From sequence record PV805638.1: a DNA stretch of 64,000 nucleotides, one strand, 5' to 3'. Both the position numbers and the translations under genes were made by a program. Under the pieces are notes generated by a model that saw nothing but the letters and a program-made list of their open reading frames with translations, did not search any database and was not told the origin of the DNA. Shown one piece after another: positions 4,373 through 64,000 of this stretch (position 1 is the first letter of the stretch; every line of letters starts with the position of its first letter). This stretch comes from a phage.

Positions 4373-4749
4373 AAACTATCTCATTAGGTGATAACACCAA
4401 TGCTTTGATGGGTGTATCCGCACGTCCAATTACCATTGTTAATAAACATCACGGTAAATCCGGTGAGTATATTGGGCGTGGCTCACCGTTAGGCAATCCA
4501 TTCGTCATTGGTAAACATGGAACCAGAGAGCAAGTAATTGCTAAGTATAAGGTCTGGCTACAAGAACAGATTGATAAAGGCAATCCAGTTGTACTGGATG
4601 AACTCAATCGTCTTGGTAATAAAGCCATTGATGAAAAAGGTCTGGCCTTACAGTGCTTCTGTTATCCAAAACCATGTCATGGTGAGGTTATTAAAGAGAA
4701 GCTAGTAAAGGCTATGTATAACTACTTTGTAGAAAATCCAAAAGGGTAA
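4369..4749 (+). CDS. DUF4326-family protein
   Basis: GRGSPLGNPF ... LQCFCYPKPCHGEVI matches the DUF4326 signature from memory. Confidence 0.6.
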   Translation: MKTISLGDNTNALMGVSARPITIVNKHHGKSGEYIGRGSPLGNPFVIGKHGTREQVIAKYKVWLQEQIDKGNPVVLDELNRLGNKAIDEKGLALQCFCYPKPCHGEVIKEKLVKAMYNYFVENPKG

Positions 4750-4752
4750 CTA

Positions 4753-5103
4753 ATGAAAGAGATATTCGTATTTACTACCAACATATTAGGTCAACATACC
4801 AATGCTGCTGCCAAGTTAGCTTATAAGAAGCATGGTGCTCGCTGGGGTATGGCCTACGGTCATTATGGTAATAGCTTTGCCATTCCAGTAAGGGATGGCA
4901 ATGGTAACCGAATTAAAGAGGGTGCTATCTATGGCTTCGTTGAAGGCTTTATTTCCTATGCATCTACTAATCCACAGTGGGATTTCAAAGTAATGGGAGA
5001 TGACTTTCTGGACCCATACCTGTTCAATAATGTTACTGGCAATGTACTGTTACCAGAAGCATGGCGTAAACACTTAGGTGATGCTTACAACTACTGGTCA
5101 TAA
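4753..5103 (+). CDS. hypothetical protein (possible Rossmann-like fold)
   Basis: ORF 116 aa; FVFTTN...G...AA motif; family not recognised. Confidence 0.5.
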   Translation: MKEIFVFTTNILGQHTNAAAKLAYKKHGARWGMAYGHYGNSFAIPVRDGNGNRIKEGAIYGFVEGFISYASTNPQWDFKVMGDDFLDPYLFNNVTGNVLLPEAWRKHLGDAYNYWS

Positions 5104-55957: not shown

Positions 55958-58228
55958 TTACAGGTTCATGCCAAGAGCCGATGCTGGGTCTTGGCTAGGG
56001 TCATAGTATTGGGAACTAAGTGAATAAGACGGGTCTTGCTGAGCAGCTAAATCCCGTTCTGGTATAGAGTTCACGTTAGTCAAAGTATTATATCCAACAG
56101 CTGCAGATATGTTGGGGGTAGTTTCCCCTTCTTTAATAGGTGTTGTCAATGCCTTAGTTATTTGAAGGTTCTGGTTTCCTTGGGATTGTGCTTTTTGTTT
56201 TTCCATATCACGAGCATGTTTAGTACCAGATTCCTGTTCCAGATAATCCAGGTCTTTAAGGTCACCACTAGAAGCAGCCTCTTTAGCTTTAGCCATATTG
56301 AGTGCAATCTTACTTTGCAACTCTTCATTCTCAAGCTGTGCTTTCTGAATTGCCAATTGCTTAAGCTGTTCTTCCATAGGGTCTGGTTGTGGTTGCCAAG
56401 TACGTAACTCATGAGCCAGGTCAGGCATACGTTTAAGCTCTGCAATCTTAGCTACGAGGGATAATGTAATAGTCTGGTCAACCGTATTACCCAATGTTTG
56501 AACCATGAAGCTCAAGTCCTGGGATTTCTGGTTATCAATTTCAGCAGTGTTAATATCAACCTCAATGTCGAAGTTACCTTTAAGATCTTCACGGTTAATC
56601 TCTACATACTGCTCGTTAGTAATACGTACTACTTCCTTCTCAGATAAGAACACAGCATTCATTGCACAAATCTTAGTACCAATGTCTGCCATACCCTTAG
56701 CTAATCGACGAAGGATTGCCATCTCACGCTTGGATGCTGCATCAAGTGCACCACGAATACCAGCAGCCACATCTCCGTATGCTGAACCAGTTACACCACC
56801 GGAGAATGCTTTAACACCAGTTAATGATTCAGCTTCCTGGTTTTGCATCTGGGTCATTATTATTGCCGACTGAGGTAACTCAGGGAACTTATGTTCCATA
56901 ATGGCTTGACTAGGATTACCCTGCATTGGGTTGTATTCATAGTCTTGCCCATCGTCATAACGACGTCGGTTTAGTGTATCCAACATCCCTTTAGGATAAC
57001 CACGCTGACCATTTGCACTTCGACCTAACAGGTCAATCATCCCACGCATAGTTGCACCAAGAATTGCTTGGTTATCCCCTAATAGTTCAGCATCAGCTTC
57101 ACCAAAGAGTTCACGTTTACGAGGCATGTAAGGAACAACTACTAAAGGTAATTTGCCGTCAGGGAATGGGTTCCTCTCCATACGAATAAGGGTAGAACCA
57201 ATCCAGGTAGCAACAATAGGTTCCAGAGAACCATCATCATTGATGTCGTAGAATCCCCAGTATTCATAAGCAACAACTTTCTTACGTAGTGCATCCTTAA
57301 ACTGAAAGTCACTAGGGGTTTTACTTTCATGGTCTGGGTCAGTCATTGGGCTAGAACTTTCCCAGTCAATCTTATCTAAATTGTGGTAACGGTCTTTGTT
57401 CTTCATGAGGTCTGCTTTGCATGTCTCAAATGAGATAACTGCATACAGAGCCTTATCCAAATCACCGTTACAGCTTGGGTCAATAACTACGTTATTGGGG
57501 TTAAGCATTTCAACGGTAGGTCTGTTAACCAGTGCCTTCTCTACCTCTACTTCAGTAACCCCTGTCTGGATTGCATACGTAGCTTCTCCAGTTTCATTGA
57601 AGTAGTTAACAGCTTCCTTAATATCTTCAGGCATTGTTTCATCATACTCACGAGGATTCTCTGCCTGAAGCTGTAAAGCCTGTTGAAGAACATCTGCCTG
57701 TTCTTGGTTCTCAATTGGATACAACTGGAAGACTGGTGTTTCTGTTTTAATCTTAACGGTCTTACGTTCCCAACCAATACGAGCAATACCAGTACCGTCA
57801 TCTACGACACTGTGTACGTAATCATCTACCAGTTTTACTTTATTAAGCTGTGTACGGAATTGGTAGTTAAGAACTAATTCATTCTGACGTGCAGCTAACT
57901 CATCTTCAAAAGTAACCGGGGTTACTTTAAAGAGTTTGTTAGATGAGAGGAATGGCTCGGATAATGGAGCATATCGCCACTCTGCCTGACGGCGAACCAG
58001 TCTGGGCTGGACTTGTGATCGTCCTTTAACCTTTGGGGGTTTAGCTTTACCTTTAACTTCCATCAGGTCATTCCACTCACGAATCTGTGCCATAATCGCA
58101 TCGTGAGCAGGTTTAGCTGATTCCAAATCACCCTTCAGTAATTGGATACTTGGTTCCTTCTTCCAGTCCGTTAACTTCTCTGATTGAGCCGGGTCTGGTA
58201 AAGGCTTAAAAGTGTCTTGGTGTTCCAT
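55958..58228 (-). CDS. portal protein (N4 gp59-like)
   Basis: 756 aa; size and order (portal-scaffold-MCP). Confidence 0.65.
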
Positions 58229-58236
58229 AGTTAATC

Positions 58237-58737
58237 CTATTCAAAAAGTTTACGGTCAGCCTGAATTTGCTTACCCAACTCAATTAGTTGGTTGTCACGG
58301 AGTCTAACAGTTGCCCGGAGTTCTTCAACCAAACGTCTGCCTTCTTCAAGACTGTTGTCGAGTCTGGCTGCATGGCTTGCAAGACTTCTGCACTCAAGGG
58401 TTCCGGCTTCGGCTTGACGTTTATATACCGATGCTCGTCTTTCAGACTGTTGCATCCGGCTGTCGTAATCACTGCTAACGCGAGCAAGCTCGCTTGCGTA
58501 ATTACTCTCAGCCGTCTGCAACCGGGAAGTAAGTAACCCGACTTCATAACTATGGTTTCTTTGGAGAGCATTGTATTTGTCCTGTAGTTTTTGTGTTGCC
58601 TTCTGGTCTTCAACCTTTTGAGCATCCCATCTCTTTTGGACAGTAGACTGTCCATTGGAATTGCCCCAAAAGTAAATGGTGGCCCCGAGGACCACCACCA
58701 GAAGATAAGGCCAACCTTTAGAGATTAGCATCTTCAT
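58237..58737 (-). CDS. i-spanin (Rz-like; N-terminal TM, periplasmic coiled coil)
   Basis: N-terminal [18 protein letters not shown] then Gln/Arg/Glu-rich helical region; directly after endolysin; start taken at internal Met. Confidence 0.55.
58284..58547 (-). CDS. o-spanin (Rz1-like lipoprotein) embedded in i-spanin gene in another frame
   Basis: Lipobox-like [12 protein letters not shown] then Pro-rich periplasmic part; entirely inside the i-spanin ORF. Confidence 0.5.
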   Translation of the reverse strand: MKSGYLLPGCRRLRVITQASLLALAVITTAGCNSLKDEHRYINVKPKPEPLSAEVLQAMQPDSTTVLKKADVWLKNSGQLLDSVTTN

Positions 58738-59353
58738 TACATGCCTCCAGTGGTACATTACCGATTCGGTTAGCTACCCAACCATACGTAAAGTCTGGCA
58801 TGTTCAATGAGGTGTAGTGGTTCAATTGTTTAGCATCAAGCAACTTAATCATTACCTGACATGCTGCAACTTTGCCTCGTTTTTTCTGTAATGCTTTATA
58901 TGCATTAACAGTACCTGCACCGACTTTACCATCAACTTGTATTTTAGGGTAGTCTTTGCCATCACGGGACATTTCATTAAGGGATTGCTGCAACCACTTA
59001 GCTGGTCTGGTTACACCGGTATTAACACCAGCATCAACCAGTTTGTGTGTTACAGCAGGAGATATATCAGCGAAGGCTACGAAGTTAGGCTTAATAACGT
59101 AGTCATCAATGTATATCTCAGCAGCCATCTCTTTAGATAAACCCTTCATGGAACCATCCCAACCATACTCAGTAGCCAGAACTTCTTTATGAGACTTAGC
59201 TACTGAATGAGTAATACCATGATTAGTTTCCCCGCCTGGGTCACGAGGATTGTTTACGTATCCCCCTTCCATATAGAACACTGCCCCCAGAATAGCAGCG
59301 ATAACTCCTCCCACCGCACCCCCTTTTGCAGCAAGTTTCTGTTTAGCTTTCAT
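58718..59353 (-). CDS. endolysin, GH108 N-acetylmuramidase with N-terminal signal-anchor and C-terminal PG-binding region
   Basis: EGGYVNNPRDPGGETNHGIT matches GH108 signature; N-terminal Gly/Ala-rich hydrophobic GGAVGGVIAAILGAVFY (SAR-like). Confidence 0.7.
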   Translation of the reverse strand: MKAKQKLAAKGGAVGGVIAAILGAVFYMEGGYVNNPRDPGGETNHGITHSVAKSHKEVLATEYGWDGSMKGLSKEMAAEIYIDDYVIKPNFVAFADISPAVTHKLVDAGVNTGVTRPAKWLQQSLNEMSRDGKDYPKIQVDGKVGAGTVNAYKALQKKRGKVAACQVMIKLLDAKQLNHYTSLNMPDFTYGWVANRIGNVPLEACNEDANL

Positions 59354-59603
59354 GAGAATCTTCCTTTGGATGGAATCGTATTAGTCTACCTACAATGTTT
59401 AAGGCAAATAGTGCGATTGTAATACTGGAACCATGTGGAATATCTTCAAGGATGTGACGTGGTAGTCCCGTCAGCATTGGTTGGATAATATCTACTGTAG
59501 AAAACAGAATTACTCCAAATGCACTAATCTGAACAGATGCCCACTTCCAGGACCTCTTCCAGTTAGGAACTAGCCCTATTTTTCTTTTTAGCTTGCGAAC
59601 CAT
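59343..59603 (-). CDS. putative holin (2 TM)
   Basis: Two hydrophobic helices; immediately upstream of endolysin; ORF-track version extends to 59669. Confidence 0.5.
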   Translation of the reverse strand: MVRKLKRKIGLVPNWKRSWKWASVQISAFGVILFSTVDIIQPMLTGLPRHILEDIPHGSSITIALFALNIVGRLIRFHPKEDSHES

Positions 59604-59920
59604 GCGAATATCTCCCGTCTTGCAGCAGCCAATACACCAATGATTGCACCTGCCCCAGCCCATACCCACTTGCCAAAAATTCCAGCACCTGCAACCTTAT
59701 GTTTAATGGTGATGAACTCTTCGATGGTAGGTTCAGACTTAGTGATGCTCTCCTCTACCCGTTTAAGTCGGGTACTAAGGTCACCCATAGACTCACTTAG
59801 TTTTTTAATAGACTCTTCCATTTTCTCCCTATCCCTCGATTCACGAGTTTGGTTTTCGAAAATGTTTCTTAGTCTCTCTTCGAGTCTGGCTAGAGTTACG
59901 TTATCTGGTTCATTTCCCAT
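59588..59920 (-). CDS. membrane protein with cytoplasmic coiled coil and C-terminal TM (holin/antiholin candidate)
   Basis: 110 aa; C-terminal GAGIFGKWVWAGAGAIIGVLAAA TM. Confidence 0.45.
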   Translation of the reverse strand: MGNEPDNVTLARLEERLRNIFENQTRESRDREKMEESIKKLSESMGDLSTRLKRVEESITKSEPTIEEFITIKHKVAGAGIFGKWVWAGAGAIIGVLAAARREIFAWFAS

Positions 59921-60167
59921 AGGGATTTTCTCAGGTTAGTTAAGTCGTAATTGACTAAAACAGTCTACCTAATGACTTGTTTTTGGTACAACAAAAACCC
60001 ACCCCCCGCAACCTAGTTGGGCTGGTTAAAGCCTGAAATATGGAACAGCAGTCACCAAAACAACAAAGACCATACTTAGGGTTGAGACAATCATATGGGT
60101 GGCTATATGCGTATAATATTTTTAGGGAGCAAGTGTATACTTGCTCCCCAGAGTTATCTCAGAGTCA

Positions 60168-62702
60168 TCAGAACACATAATCCAGTTGCGTAAGCTGCTT
60201 CAACTGAATCTGCACGGTACTATCCAGAGTTACTGCCGGAACAGTTAAGCCAGAAACACCGATTGCAAAGTCCGCAATGAACCCGGTAGTAGGATTCTTT
60301 ACTATATCCGCCCCAGTACCCCCAGAACCTGTACTTGCAAACTGAGTCTGCTTAGTACCATAAGCATTCCCTGTACCCGCAATAACTAGTTGCCATACAC
60401 CCCTGCCGAGCGTACCTGGAATACTCAAGCTACCTGAACCAGCAGCCCGAAATATCTTGGTATTCTCATAGAACATACACTCTTGCAACGTGCAGGTACT
60501 TCTCTGCCCGGTACTCACAACCTGATTACCCCGGAAGCTAAAGTTAGTCTGGTCATTCAGAACGAAGTCACACAGCTTAGCCTCTTGCACCCGCACGTTC
60601 ATATCCAGAGTGTTGGCATGAGCAATCAGGGACTTAGGAATACCTTGCACCTTATATCCAACAGCACGATAACTTAAATCCAGAGAGTTGTACTGCTTCA
60701 CGGAGTTGCCAATCAGCTTAACCGTCTGTCCCCGATATACCTGGGATGCGCTAGCCCCAGCGTTAACTATAATAGCCTCGGTTGTGTTATTGACAGTCTG
60801 ACACTTAAGTACAACCGTATTGTGACTGATATCGATATCCTGGTACACCTGGTATGAGCTATCCCCTGCTCCGGTCGATATAGCTACCCCATCAAAAGCT
60901 CTAAGCTCGCAATAGTTGTTGTGAATCTTAACAAAGGGGTTCGGATACGTCGCTGCCGTAGCCTCCCCGCCGCCACCTACATCGATGCTGCGAGTATACT
61001 TTCCACCTATAAGCAGTCCGGAAGTAGCACTAGCAGGAATATCTCTGGAGCGCACATAGTTGTTGCTAACGATGAGGTTGTATGGTTCGTAGTTTGGATT
61101 CCAACCTGCCCCACATTTAGCATATATACCAACTACGCCGTGCTCAAGGCACATGTTCTCCGTGATGATTACCTGCCCACCACCGTGGAAGTCAATACAC
61201 TTACGACGACAGTTCTTAATCTGGTTTTTAGCAACAACTACGTTCCTGATTCTTCGGTTACGCGCATGCGAAATACCGTACCCAGGGTCGTAGCTATCGT
61301 TCAGAACATCATCACCATAAGGGTGTCCAATATTCTGGATATCGTTGGACTCATAGTTTAGTCTGTAGCCGGACAGTACGTAGATACCTGCACTGTAGCA
61401 ATCCTTGATGGTACAGCCCATAACCATAACACCGTCAGGTACATCCGTGTCATTCGTATAATCCGTGCTGCCGTAGGTAGTCGCAATGTTACGGATGCCG
61501 ATACCAATGCCACCAAAGTTAAAACCGGATACGTGCGAGTTCAGAATAAGGATGCCACGGCAGCCGCGTTGCACCTTGATACCATTAGCCCAGCTTCCGA
61601 TGTAACCGCCAAGGAAAGTCCCCCAGGTACTGCGCCACCCATCCAACTGATTACCCGCGTCATCATAGTTAGGGAACTGTCCAGCTACACCAGCATAAGC
61701 ACCAGACGTGTACGCACTGGAGTCAACGGAGTTATTAGGACCTGTAAACAGTGCTGTATCGTATCCGAAACGAGCCTCACCTTTCTCTGCATAACCAGTA
61801 GGCACATCTATAGCAGGGAACTTGTTAGGGCCACGCACAGTCAGCGATACAGTCACGTTCCGGCAATTTACAAGGGCAAGTCCGTCCAGCCCATGCGTAT
61901 TCACAATTATAGTGCCGTTGGAGATACGAATACCTTCCTTATTTACCAGTGCCAGACACGGACTGTAGTTACGTGTACCGTCGCTGAAGTCAGGCTCAGT
62001 AGGGTACGTAGAAGCCAATGCAGGATTTTTTCGAACTAAATATGTCTTTCCTCCTAAATCAATATCTCCAGTGGCGGCGTCGAAACATGCCTGCACTGCC
62101 AACGTATCGTCGGCAACGCCATCGCCAACCGCCCCCCATCCACGTGGATCGCCATTATCACGCCAGCGAGCCATTTGTAGTTCGGGGTATTTTGTTGCAC
62201 CTTCAGGGTCTGAAATCTGTCCTCGTAGCACCACATCCCCAACACTCACCCAAGCACCCAGACCAACACCACCAGAAGTTTTAGGGGTTGAGTCGGCAGG
62301 AACTACTTTAGGCAATACACCATCCCATCGATACTTACCATCGGTAAAGACAACCAGTTCATTCTTGGTATTAACTGTTACACCAGTATCAAATGAACCA
62401 GGTAAGGTTACATACTCTTCACGAGCAACAGCAAGTGCACCTAAGTCCACACTACCAGCAGAGTGTACTAATACCCCAGATGGACTAAGACTTGCAGCAG
62501 TAACCCCTGAACCAATGTCAGCAGGTAAGGAATAAGCACGCTGTGTCTCCTTGTCGTAGATGACTTTGTAACCACTTAGTACAGCACCCACTGAGAAGTA
62601 AACAACCTCAGATTGCTTAACTCCAAAGTGACGGGCTACTGCTTGTTTATTGGTTAAGATTCCAGTTGAACCTTTACCACCTTGAGAGAACATTTCGTTC
62701 AT
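60168..62702 (-). CDS. tailspike with pectate-lyase-like right-handed beta-helix (putative polysaccharide depolymerase)
   Basis: 844 aa; GAVGDGVADDTLAVQACFDAA resembles the pectate_lyase_3 N-cap motif; repeated G/N/I-rich beta-helix rungs. Confidence 0.65.
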   Translation of the reverse strand: MNEMFSQGGKGSTGILTNKQAVARHFGVKQSEVVYFSVGAVLSGYKVIYDKETQRAYSLPADIGSGVTAASLSPSGVLVHSAGSVDLGALAVAREEYVTLPGSFDTGVTVNTKNELVVFTDGKYRWDGVLPKVVPADSTPKTSGGVGLGAWVSVGDVVLRGQISDPEGATKYPELQMARWRDNGDPRGWGAVGDGVADDTLAVQACFDAATGDIDLGGKTYLVRKNPALASTYPTEPDFSDGTRNYSPCLALVNKEGIRISNGTIIVNTHGLDGLALVNCRNVTVSLTVRGPNKFPAIDVPTGYAEKGEARFGYDTALFTGPNNSVDSSAYTSGAYAGVAGQFPNYDDAGNQLDGWRSTWGTFLGGYIGSWANGIKVQRGCRGILILNSHVSGFNFGGIGIGIRNIATTYGSTDYTNDTDVPDGVMVMGCTIKDCYSAGIYVLSGYRLNYESNDIQNIGHPYGDDVLNDSYDPGYGISHARNRRIRNVVVAKNQIKNCRRKCIDFHGGGQVIITENMCLEHGVVGIYAKCGAGWNPNYEPYNLIVSNNYVRSRDIPASATSGLLIGGKYTRSIDVGGGGEATAATYPNPFVKIHNNYCELRAFDGVAISTGAGDSSYQVYQDIDISHNTVVLKCQTVNNTTEAIIVNAGASASQVYRGQTVKLIGNSVKQYNSLDLSYRAVGYKVQGIPKSLIAHANTLDMNVRVQEAKLCDFVLNDQTNFSFRGNQVVSTGQRSTCTLQECMFYENTKIFRAAGSGSLSIPGTLGRGVWQLVIAGTGNAYGTKQTQFASTGSGGTGADIVKNPTTGFIADFAIGVSGLTVPAVTLDSTVQIQLKQLTQLDYVF

Positions 62703-62751
62703 ATAAACCTCATTGTTTTTCTAGGTAAGCCCCCAACTACGGGGGCTTTGA

Positions 62752-64000
62752 TTAAAGCAGTGTGTATTCCACTGTAGATGGAAGGGGGACACCTACTGCT
62801 ACAGGTCTGTTTACTGTAATTACACCAGCAGAGCAAGAAGCAGTATCGTTTGCAGTAGCTGGGTCAACTACCCATGAGCGAACTCTATACGACTTAGTTG
62901 TGTCTGCATTAGGTATAGTTAATGTTCCAGAAGTGGCCCCAATAGCAACAGGAACACTTACTACCCCATTGGTAGCAGGTGTGCCTCTATTAGAACGATA
63001 GTAATTATAAGAATTGGAAGGCTTCAATATTTCCTCAATACCAGTTAATCCGGAATTTTGCACTACAACATCACTAGAACCAGTTAGGTACAACGGATTT
63101 GCCAAAGTACATGAATCAATAACAATACCCCCACCAGTATGGTTAAAAATTGCTATACCCGACCACCCACCGACAAACGTAGACTGGCCGATGTATACAG
63201 GCCCAACATGTTGGCCAGCAATGTTAATACCAATGTTATTATTGAGAGGGTTGGCATTATGCAAATTACAGTGCAAACCAGTAATCGATTTCTGTTGTTG
63301 GATTTGGTTAGCGTTTAAAGAGACTGCAAAAAATTGCTCTGTGGACTCACCATCGCCAGCTATCCATGAATCTGACAGGTTAAATCCACCGTTAACGTTA
63401 ATAATAGCCACGGCATTCTTTCGAATGTAATCCAAATCCAGATTACTCATCTGCAAGTCCAGGCAGTCATCAACATAGATGCCATAATCTACGGAAATAC
63501 ACATAGTTTCCCCATCAATAACGATGGCTTCACTACGAGATCCTGAACTCTGGTCAGGACTCCACGCATACACCCTAGGCTGGATGCGAATGCCAAACGT
63601 GTTACCCAATGTAGAATAATGATCACGGCGGAAATGGCATCCCGTGATATTGATAGAAACGTTTTGCCCCCATAGATGTAACCCCATACGGCAGCTACTA
63701 GTAGTGCAGTTACGCAACGTAGAATGCCACAACCCCTGTAGTTGCATTCCTATTTCAAACACCTCAGCACAAACACCCTGGATATCGAAACCGTAAATTT
63801 GCTGTTCTGCCTCGGCAGTGGATTCAATATCTGTACCAATCCCTATGCCAGTGCCATTCCCCTGCAAGCGGAAATTGTATAAATAACGGCCAGATATCCC
63901 GCCTCCATGCATCAAAACTAACAGACCTTTACCGAGATCAGTGTAGGTTTTAAGACACGAGTTAATACCCTCGCCTCTTAGATTAACAAATGGCTTGAGC
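62752..64000 (-). CDS. second beta-helix tail fibre/tailspike, 5'-truncated by window edge
   Basis: Frame stays open with no stop from 63915 to 64000 on the - strand; Asn/Gly/Ile-rich repeats. Confidence 0.55.
   Translation of the reverse strand, partial: LKPFVNLRGEGINSCLKTYTDLGKGLLVLMHGGGISGRYLYNFRLQGNGTGIGIGTDIESTAEAEQQIYGFDIQGVCAEVFEIGMQLQGLWHSTLRNCTTSSCRMGLHLWGQNVSINITGCHFRRDHYSTLGNTFGIRIQPRVYAWSPDQSSGSRSEAIVIDGETMCISVDYGIYVDDCLDLQMSNLDLDYIRKNAVAIINVNGGFNLSDSWIAGDGESTEQFFAVSLNANQIQQQKSITGLHCNLHNANPLNNNIGINIAGQHVGPVYIGQSTFVGGWSGIAIFNHTGGGIVIDSCTLANPLYLTGSSDVVVQNSGLTGIEEILKPSNSYNYYRSNRGTPATNGVVSVPVAIGATSGTLTIPNADTTKSYRVRSWVVDPATANDTASCSAGVITVNRPVAVGVPLPSTVEYTLL

Follow-up and report, generated by a model that had tools for sequence, protein, structure and literature searches.

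The segment 58237-59920 of the phage DNA analysed here (sequence record PV805638.1; the whole stretch of 64,000 nt is referred to as the window) is very probably an ordinary late-gene lysis cassette of a G7C-like coliphage (Gamaleyavirus, Schitoviridae; N4-family). An ORF scan of the window revealed five closely packed genes on the minus strand, flanked by the tailspike gene at 60168-62702 (phrog_7992, E=3e-114) and by the portal gene at 55958-58228 (phrog_1216, E=1e-275). Neighbouring genes of the cassette overlap by 11-21 nt, or by 42 nt when the i-spanin is taken from its longest ORF. The DNA is 96-97% identical to that of coliphage G7C and the proteins 96.5-98.8% identical to their G7C counterparts, while all of them align over their full length with N4 gp60/gp60a/gp61/gp62/gp63 at 58-73% identity. 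The features considered are the following:

59921..60167, minus strand: non-coding spacer of 247 nt between the tailspike gene and the cassette, with no ORF
60116-60134 and 60139-60157: arms of a hairpin (inverted repeat I1) that includes a 10-bp perfect stem, just past the tailspike stop
59588..59920, minus strand: gp63-like protein, 110 aa (ORF, phrog_5211, N4 gp63 homology)
59343..59603, minus strand: gp62-like protein with two TMDs, 86 aa (DUF7940, phrog_1356, N4 gp62 homology)
58718..59353, minus strand: SAR endolysin (gp61-like), 211 aa (PF05838, PF09374, phrog_315)
58237..58737, minus strand: i-spanin (Rz-like, gp60-like), 166 aa from MKM (phrog_6197, GGAGG, N4 gp60 homology)
58284..58547, minus strand: o-spanin (Rz1-like; G7C gp60', N4 gp60a), 87 aa (lipoprotein rule, conservation, wobble)

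The minus-strand ORFs confirmed the gene order proposed in the initial annotation, namely a TM protein, a holin-like protein, a GH108 endolysin and an i-spanin with an embedded o-spanin, and the two PHROG matches of the flanking genes bore out its placement of the cassette between tailspike and portal. Membrane segments were judged from hydropathy alone (Kyte-Doolittle, 19-residue windows), and families were assigned with Pfam, under curated cut-offs, and with PHROG. Gene anatomy, domains, hydrophobic segments, the lipoprotein signal, dual-coding selection and orthology are established for this sequence, the alignments indicating a gene-for-gene correspondence with N4 gp63-gp62-gp61-gp60/gp60a. 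The cassette is already known, having been annotated in G7C and experimentally tested in N4, and the same reading as that of the initial annotation already stands in the G7C GenBank record. In a preprint, Awuah et al. (bioRxiv 10.1101/2025.11.12.688109) identified by complementation the N4 spanins, SAR endolysin, lysis regulator and pinholin: the N4 homologues complemented S21, R21 and Rz/Rz1 defects, and the N4 cassette lysed E. coli in about 25 min. Because these experiments concern N4 and not the present sequence, the function proposed for each cassette protein is carried over from homologues within the above range of identity.

In the endolysin, a GH108 N-acetylmuramidase domain was found at aa 24-113 (Glyco_hydro_108, PF05838, E=2.8e-19; score 69.9 bits, cut-off 21.2), followed by a PG_binding_3 domain at aa 117-196 (PF09374, E=6.7e-8, 33.1 bits against 24.6), and the whole protein matched the endolysin family phrog_315 (E=3e-41). 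Its EGGYVN..GG.T..GIT stretch can be aligned to 6v3z, a GH108 protein of solved structure, and the solved structure 6v40 was also matched. The N-terminus displayed a hydropathy peak of 1.79 at aa 7-25, and the SAR TMD was placed at aa ~7-27 (nt 59273-59335), its end being adjoined by the EGGYVN motif. The core of this segment, GGAVGGVIAAILGAVFY, contains 53% Gly+Ala and is preceded by K2, K4, K6 and K10, so that the Gly/Ala-rich N-terminal signal-anchor attributed to this GH108 enzyme in the initial annotation was upheld. Identity to N4 gp61 reaches 70%, with a nearly identical SAR segment. N4 gp61 (Stojkovic & Rothman-Denes 2007, as cited in Awuah et al.) proved to be a SAR endolysin that functions with a pinholin, that promotes slow lysis without any holin, and that causes rapid lysis when acidic substitutions are introduced into its SAR domain (Awuah et al.). 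By analogy with N4 gp61 only, the gp61-like protein would be exported independently of a holin, tethered, and released on depolarisation. Sequence alone cannot tell with certainty whether this segment is a releasable SAR domain, a signal peptide that is cleaved off or an anchor that stays in the membrane; however, the abundance of Gly and Ala, the flanking lysines, which resemble those of SAR domains, the nearly unchanged N-terminus and the behaviour of N4 gp61 and of its acidic variants make either of the last two alternatives very unlikely.

Downstream of the endolysin, the i-spanin gene spans 58237-58758 in its longest ORF (173 aa), although its start is probably ATG 58737 rather than 58758. 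This ATG is preceded by a GGAGG Shine-Dalgarno sequence at 6 nt, and residues 8-173 of the long ORF align to positions 1-166 of the phrog_6197 'Rz-like spanin' profile (E=4e-77). The protein, 58% identical to N4 gp60, showed a single N-terminal hydropathy peak of 1.61, corresponding to a TMD at aa ~9-25. A long periplasmic domain that carries a single Cys (C114) follows, and this layout fits a type II inner-membrane protein. A 'terminator' annotated in some relatives sits within the codons of this TMD and was probably called in error.

The o-spanin gene lies wholly within the i-spanin gene, in the +1 frame, extending from 0.38 to 0.91 of its length. This position is close to that described by Kongari et al., in which about 70% of embedded spanins start at 0.4-0.5 L and end at 0.9-1.0 L. 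The longest form of the embedded ORF occupies 58284-58655, and its start is probably ATG 58547, which follows a weak Shine-Dalgarno sequence. Read from MKSGY, the product conforms to a PROSITE PS51257-type lipoprotein rule, with Lys2, Cys32 and Asn at +2, and thus the lipobox TTAGC reported in the initial annotation was recovered, at the end of a signal peptide. The lipobox reads T-A-G|C, the Cys codon being located at 58452-58454 and leaving a mature part of 56 aa; its Thr at -3 falls outside the classical [LVI] consensus and inside the PROSITE rule. Asn rather than Asp at +2 fits outer-membrane sorting, and the only hydropathy peak is found right before the Cys. The protein is 73% identical to N4 gp60a; it gave no match in Pfam and, in PHROG, a weak match to a family of unknown function. 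An embedded o-spanin is also annotated in G7C, Bas96 and Mimir124.

It was considered whether the +1 ORF could be an unexpressed by-product of i-spanin composition, with the i-spanin alone or another factor disrupting the outer membrane. When the codons of the i-spanin gene were shuffled synonymously 5000 times, 17% of the trials produced an ORF of at least 87 aa in an alternative frame, and ORF length is therefore weak proof of an embedded gene; the weak Shine-Dalgarno sequence and the family searches described above could be read in the same way. However, an ORF with a lipoprotein signal appeared in just 1.1% of the same shuffles. Moreover, a +1-frame lipoprotein ORF with its lipobox and a mature part of 54-63 aa was kept in 14/14 relatives examined, from nine host genera, among which the i-spanins fall to ~40% identity with the embedded ORF still present. 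Third-position diversity of the i-spanin frame fell to 0.108 within the mature o-spanin, from 0.357-0.440 elsewhere in the gene, and this collapse of wobble variation, restricted to the mature o-spanin, is a signature of dual coding. The fully embedded, out-of-frame o-spanin claimed in the initial annotation is thus sustained by both conservation and third-position variation. In addition, N4 gp60 and gp60a complement lambda Rz/Rz1 amber mutants (Awuah et al.), on the basis of which the two products would be expected to form a spanin complex and to disrupt the outer membrane. Taken with this complementation, the rarity of lipoprotein signals in the shuffles, the relatives and the wobble pattern already largely refute the reading of the ORF as a by-product, which we consider extremely improbable.

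Both genes located upstream of the endolysin encode membrane proteins, as the initial annotation had stated in calling the first a TM protein and the second holin-like, and TM segments were found in both candidates. However, it is the first of them, and not the 'holin-like' one, that is likely to be the pinholin by N4 homology. The gp63-like protein matched phrog_5211 (E=3e-49) and comprises a cytoplasmic, coiled-coil N-terminal domain and a single C-terminal TMD at ~aa 76-100 (57% Gly+Ala), with one hydropathy peak of 1.59 at aa 81-99. A conserved 'Receiver' motif, PTIEEFITIKHK, was located at aa 64-75. Identity to N4 gp63 amounts to 60% over 110 aa (E=7e-52), rising to 44/49 identical residues in the Receiver and TMD region (aa 62-110), and T65 and T71, the rapid-lysis residues of N4 gp63, are kept. 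Awuah et al. demonstrated that N4 gp63 complements the S21 pinholin defect and not that of S105, that it forms small lethal holes freeing SAR but not soluble endolysins, and that the N4 rapid-lysis mutations lie in gp63, none having been mapped to gp62. The gp63-like protein is, by this homology, probably a pinholin.

A different nature for this protein was suggested by weak PHROG 'hemolysin' matches (E=9e-4 and 8e-3), which raised the candidate of an XhlA-type haemolysin. This candidate was rejected, as no XhlA model was matched: at E up to 1, XhlA was absent both among the Pfam matches listed for the gp63-like protein and among the 25 Pfam families matched by most of 11 gp63 homologues, which were coiled-coil families below cut-offs. 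No Pfam family exceeded its cut-off for the gp63-like protein itself, coiled-coil matches again falling below, and a profile search of PDB sequences returned coiled-coil noise and nothing else.

The gp62-like protein scored 53.9 bits with Pfam DUF7940 (PF25612, E=2.7e-14; cut-off 27) and also matched phrog_1356 'holin' (E=2.7e-31); it is 58.5% identical to N4 gp62. Two hydropathy peaks (1.74 and 1.45) delimit TMDs at ~aa 22-41 and ~aa 59-77, numbered on the 86-aa form. Its likely start is ATG 59603, with GGGAG 8 nt upstream, while the longest ORF starts at GTG 59669 (108 aa) without a Shine-Dalgarno sequence. The 22-codon extension runs across codons for the TMD of gp63. Most close relatives keep its frame open, as do N4, Kaypoctavirus and Gamaleyavirus, whereas Moo19 has it closed; the wobble diversity of the overlapped gp63 codons drops mildly, to 0.275 against 0.392, a figure derived from 22 codons only. 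On these mixed indications, the 86-aa form is preferred. Awuah et al. described N4 gp62 as a lysis regulator that is not essential and whose holin-like activity is late and triggerable, and the gp62-like protein is probably, after this model, a dispensable regulator of lysis timing.

These assignments invert the roles found in GenBank-style annotation, in which the gp62-like protein would be the lysis-triggering holin and the gp63-like protein would act as an antiholin or accessory protein or have a structural or 'tape-measure' role. The gp62 homologue is labelled 'holin' in most related GenBank records, in agreement with the phrog_1356 match; the gp63 homologue of phage Piffle was designated 'putative antiholin' by its curators; and N4 gp62 displays CCCP-triggerable lethality, with late release of both endolysin types (Awuah et al.). 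However, plasmid-driven N4 lysis was unaltered by gp62 deletion (Awuah et al.), N4 gp63 is sufficient for the S21 complementation and carries the rapid-lysis mutations, and Pseudomonas phage Meara possesses a gp63 homologue without any gp62 homologue. As for the other labels, the gp63 homologue is entered in many records as 'hypothetical' or else as 'tail length tape-measure protein', and the latter name reflects coiled-coil similarity only, since all the Pfam matches fall below cut-off. The exchanged roles are thus unlikely, and the gp63-like protein is retained as the probable pinholin.

It may tentatively be proposed, as a possibility that we regard as rather unlikely, that the gp63-like protein, and not the one annotated 'holin', is the lysis clock, with PTIEEFITIKHK as its regulatory input. 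If true, this nearly invariant cytoplasmic motif would have been retained even in phages without lysis inhibition. Alternatively, the 22-codon gp62-like extension might be translated, generating a dual-start, antiholin-like gp62 isoform.

If the cassette works as its N4 homologues suggest, the muramidase would be exported via the host Sec system, and its SAR domain, which is weakly hydrophobic and rich in Gly/Ala, would keep it tethered to the inner membrane; the catalytic EGGYVN directly past this domain may help to hold the tethered enzyme inactive. The tail-anchored gp63-like protein would meanwhile build up in the inner membrane until, at a set time, its small holes collapse the membrane potential. 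Depolarisation would free the SAR domain, and the released GH108 enzyme could then degrade the peptidoglycan around the whole cell. The i-spanin, anchored in the inner membrane, and the o-spanin, an outer-membrane lipoprotein, would have bridged the periplasm beforehand through their C-termini; their subsequent disruption of the outer membrane would most likely proceed through its fusion with the inner membrane. The two-TMD gp62-like protein may modulate the timing of these events and would probably be dispensable.

Regulatory signals were also searched for around the cassette. A sigma-70 consensus scan of the spacer and the cassette yielded sites no commoner than in shuffles, none of them in the spacer, and no T-tailed terminator was detected in the 247-nt spacer. 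RNA folding was also computed for 59960-60060 and did not surpass that of shuffled sequences (z=0.6), and a tRNA scan of the window found none.

Beyond correct annotation, the importance of this cassette is small, as it is a near-identical copy of that of G7C. Its practical value lies in two recurring annotation problems of N4-like genomes, the mislabelling of gp63/gp62 and the o-spanin that often goes unannotated. The o-spanin, in turn, offers with its clean dual-coding signature a good textbook example of overlapping-gene constraint.

The closest known system is that of vB_EcoP_G7C (HQ259105, Gamaleyavirus), which carries the same five genes, gp63-gp62-gp61-gp60/gp60', in the same order and with the same overlaps and nested o-spanin; the portal gene lies downstream of the cassette in both phages. 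A few amino-acid substitutions separate the two cassettes, whereas the body of the adjoining tailspike gene is different, and the 16-bp palindromes that flank the G7C cassette are absent from the window, even with 2 mismatches allowed. In relation to N4, the SAR domain, the gp63 Receiver motif with its T65 and T71, the TMD, and the length of the mature o-spanin (56 aa in both) are kept. However, the canonical IVGC lipobox of N4 is replaced by TAGC, and the alternative start of N4 gp63 at Met17 has no equivalent here, where Leu13 and Leu17 are found. Lysis inhibition is present in N4 and reportedly absent in G7C-type phages, and therefore regulatory details may differ from those of N4. The cassette has no sequence family in common with phage 21 or lambda: its endolysin is a GH108 enzyme instead of one of the T4-lysozyme type, and in contrast to S21, with its two TMDs, the candidate pinholin combines one C-terminal TMD with a long cytoplasmic domain. 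In lambda, periplasmic cysteines that form intermolecular disulfides occur in both Rz and Rz1 (Kongari et al.), while here the i-spanin has one periplasmic Cys and the mature o-spanin none. Despite these differences, phage 21 S21/R21 and lambda Rz/Rz1 follow the same logic as the present cassette, that of a pinholin, a SAR endolysin and a two-component spanin embedded in the +1 frame.

The lysis cassette comprises five open reading frames, which are named after their G7C and N4 counterparts as follows.

Open reading frames of the cassette (ORF listing)
59588-59920, minus strand: gp63-like, 110 aa
59343-59669, minus strand: gp62-like, 86 aa from ATG 59603
58718-59353, minus strand: gp61-like, 211 aa
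58237-58758, minus strand: gp60-like, longest i-spanin frame, 173 aa
58284-58655, minus strand: gp60a, embedded frame, 123 aa, entirely within the 173-aa frame in a different frame

The coordinates and gene order of the initial annotation were found to be correct, since the ORF listing, the sequence reading and the flanking portal (phrog_1216, E=1e-275) and tailspike (phrog_7992, E=3e-114) genes agree. Neighbouring cassette genes share 11-21 nt, and short overlaps of this kind are usual in translationally coupled genes. ATG 58737, preceded by GGAGG at 6 nt, is the probable true start of the i-spanin (166 aa), which is favoured because the phrog 6197 profile alignment begins at residue 8 of the long frame; ATG 59603, preceded by GGGAG at 8 nt, is probably that of the two-TMD protein (86 aa).

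The proposed GH108 endolysin with a Gly/Ala-rich signal-anchor was borne out. The 211-aa protein carries Glyco_hydro_108 and PG_binding_3, both over the Pfam curated cut-offs, and can be aligned with solved GH108 structures, including at the EGGYVN..GG.T..GIT motif. A Kyte-Doolittle scan revealed a single hydrophobic segment, at the N-terminus, whose core GGAVGGVIAAILGAVFY is 53% Gly+Ala and follows four lysines, a composition that is, as judged from the sequence, that of a signal-anchor-release (SAR) domain.

The i-spanin was assigned to PHROG family 6197, 'Rz-like spanin' (E=4e-77), and presents one N-terminal hydrophobic segment. The single hydrophobic segment of the embedded frame lies immediately ahead of a cysteine. 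Read from MKSGY (58547), the embedded frame satisfies the PROSITE-type prokaryotic lipoprotein rule, with Cys at position 32, Asn at +2 and a Lys among residues 1-7, and the predicted mature lipoprotein would have 56 aa. It could be argued that such a frame is a by-product of the i-spanin gene without expression, and its length alone is unconvincing, since 17% of 5000 synonymous-codon shuffles of this gene yielded an alternative frame of at least 87 aa; a lipoprotein signal appeared in 1.1% of them. This reading is very unlikely in view of the 14 comparison loci (G7C, Bas96, Mimir124, Moo19, N4, and phages of Klebsiella, Achromobacter (two), Stenotrophomonas (two), Xanthomonas, Erwinia, Pseudomonas and Burkholderia), in all of which the +1 frame holds a lipobox ORF with a mature part of 54-63 aa, sharing INVKP..EPLS...LQAMQP.ST..L.KA..W..NSG.LLDSV. 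In the codon alignment of the Enquatrovirinae set, diversity at the third codon position was 0.44 and 0.36 in the i-spanin-only parts and collapsed to 0.11 over the mature o-spanin (0.63 and 0.59 against 0.24 for all 15 sequences), and the normal wobble excess was lost precisely at those sites where a third position in one frame doubles as a second position in the other. Because the excess vanishes there, the alignment provides direct evidence that purifying selection acts on both frames, and the comparative evidence for a real embedded gene can be considered decisive, upholding the o-spanin originally proposed. It occupies 0.38-0.91 of the i-spanin length, close to the placement described by Kongari et al. 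(2018, PMC6139136), in which about 70% of embedded spanins start at 0.4-0.5 L and end at 0.9-1.0 L. The embedded o-spanin is missing from the annotation of many N4-like genomes, the RefSeq N4 record included, and is annotated also in Bas96 and Mimir124.

Both proteins first described as transmembrane contain hydrophobic segments in the Kyte-Doolittle scan, a single C-terminal one in the gp63-like protein and two in the gp62-like protein, which also has matches to DUF7940 and to PHROG family 1356 ('holin'). Many GenBank records would make gp62 the holin and gp63 an antiholin or structural protein. This assignment is contradicted by N4 genetics, and in Pseudomonas phage Meara the gp63 homologue occurs with no gp62 counterpart. 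Awuah et al. (bioRxiv 10.1101/2025.11.12.688109) demonstrated that lysis of E. coli by the cloned N4 gp60-63 cluster takes about 25 min, that gp63 is a pinholin, and that gp62, named a 'lysis regulator', is dispensable, with only late, triggerable holin-like activity. In the same study, gp61 rescued endolysin defects with a large-hole holin and a pinholin alike and alone caused slow holin-independent lysis, behaving therefore as a SAR endolysin, and gp60 plus gp60a fully complemented lambda Rz/Rz1. Rapid-lysis mutations mapped to the gp61 SAR domain (G12E) and to the gp63 'Receiver' just ahead of the TMD (e.g., T65I, T71A).

We infer by orthology that the roles of the five proteins follow those in the N4 cassette. 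The N4 model was transferred because the Receiver and TMD of the gp63-like protein are identical to N4 gp63 at 44/49 positions, T65 and T71 are kept, the motif P-[TV]-I-[ED]-[ED]-F-.-.-I-K-.-[KR]-.-.-G-A-G is almost invariant in 11 gp63 homologues, and the TMD is 57% Gly+Ala; the N-terminal 61 residues are only about 36% identical. The gp63-like protein is thus the likely pinholin. The muramidase would be exported and held by its SAR domain until the pinholin depolarises the inner membrane; the freed enzyme would then degrade peptidoglycan, the i-/o-spanin complex would next breach the outer membrane, and the gp62-like protein may modulate timing. The original observation is confirmed and its interpretation supported, with refinement as to the likely pinholin and the start codons.

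In related GenBank records, gp63 homologues are often mislabelled 'tail length tape-measure protein', a label reflecting coiled-coil similarity only. An XhlA-like relationship, hinted at by weak PHROG matches, found no support in a Pfam search of the 11 homologues, which returned no family at cut-off. In Mimir124 (4589-4921 of its locus, corresponding to 59588-59920), the N-terminal cytoplasmic domain of the gp63 homologue resembles that of Klebsiella phage VLCpiP4a, not G7C, whereas the Receiver and TMD are G7C-like, which suggests intragenic recombination at the domain boundary. Stenotrophomonas phage C121 retains the SAR endolysin and spanins and carries one unrelated 111-aa 'class II holin' (1575-1910 of its locus) in place of the gp63/gp62 pair, which shows holin module replacement within Schitoviridae.

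The gp62-like frame remains open for 22 codons 5' of ATG 59603 (59604-59669, minus strand), overlapping the gp63 TMD codons, with GTG 59669 and ATG 59663 as candidate starts and no Shine-Dalgarno sequence found for this extension. The extension also stays open in N4, Kaypoctavirus and G7C-like phages but is closed in Moo19, and the gp63 codons beneath it show only a mild drop in third-position diversity (0.275 versus 0.392). A long form is unproven; the extension may correspond to the 'dual start' noted for N4 gp62, a protein for which Awuah et al. (bioRxiv 10.1101/2025.11.12.688109) give 109 aa and alternative starts.

The adjoining tailspike genes (60168-62702; 62742-64000) show mosaicism. 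In the 844-aa product of 60168-62702, the first ~200 aa match PHROG tailspike N-terminal domains. The body of this gene shares 88-91% nucleotide identity with tail fibre/spike genes from ~39-kb Enterobacter cloacae podophages and from the 158-kb Salmonella phage P46FS4, and the gene at 62742-64000 is 94% identical to the Shigella phage SFN6B tailspike. This pattern indicates that receptor-binding modules have been exchanged between phage families. Directly past the tailspike stop, a hairpin at 60116-60157 (minus-strand spacer 59921-60167) has a 10-bp perfect stem, GGGAGCAAGT n4 ACTTGCTCCC, and no T-tail, and the 16-bp palindromes CCCCGCCGAAGCGGGG flanking the G7C tailspike gene are absent from the window. 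A terminator-like call at 58675-58699 (minus strand; GGTGGTGGTCC..GGCCACC followed by a T-rich tail) lies within the i-spanin TMD codons and is probably a by-product of coding sequence; a 'terminator' feature accompanies the i-spanin match in PhAPEC7.

The cassette is already known from the G7C annotation and from its characterisation in N4. Megablast matches of 96-97% identity assign the region to the G7C group (Gamaleyavirus, Schitoviridae), and the layout is identical to that of G7C. The G7C record enters gp60' beside gp60 ('embedded within ORF60; potential Rz/Rz1-like spanin'), calls gp61 an N-acetylmuramidase and gp62 a putative holin, and gives gp63 as a hypothetical protein. Identities to G7C and N4 were, respectively, 98.2% and 60% for gp63, 96.5% and 58.5% for gp62, 98.1% and 70% for gp61, 98.8% and 58% for gp60, and 97.7% and 73% for gp60a. 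In contrast to N4, G7C reportedly does not show lysis inhibition. Also relative to N4, the gp63-like protein has Leu at positions 13 and 17 and lacks the Met17 alternative start described for N4 gp63, and the o-spanin lipobox reads TAGC, with Thr at -3, rather than the canonical IVGC.
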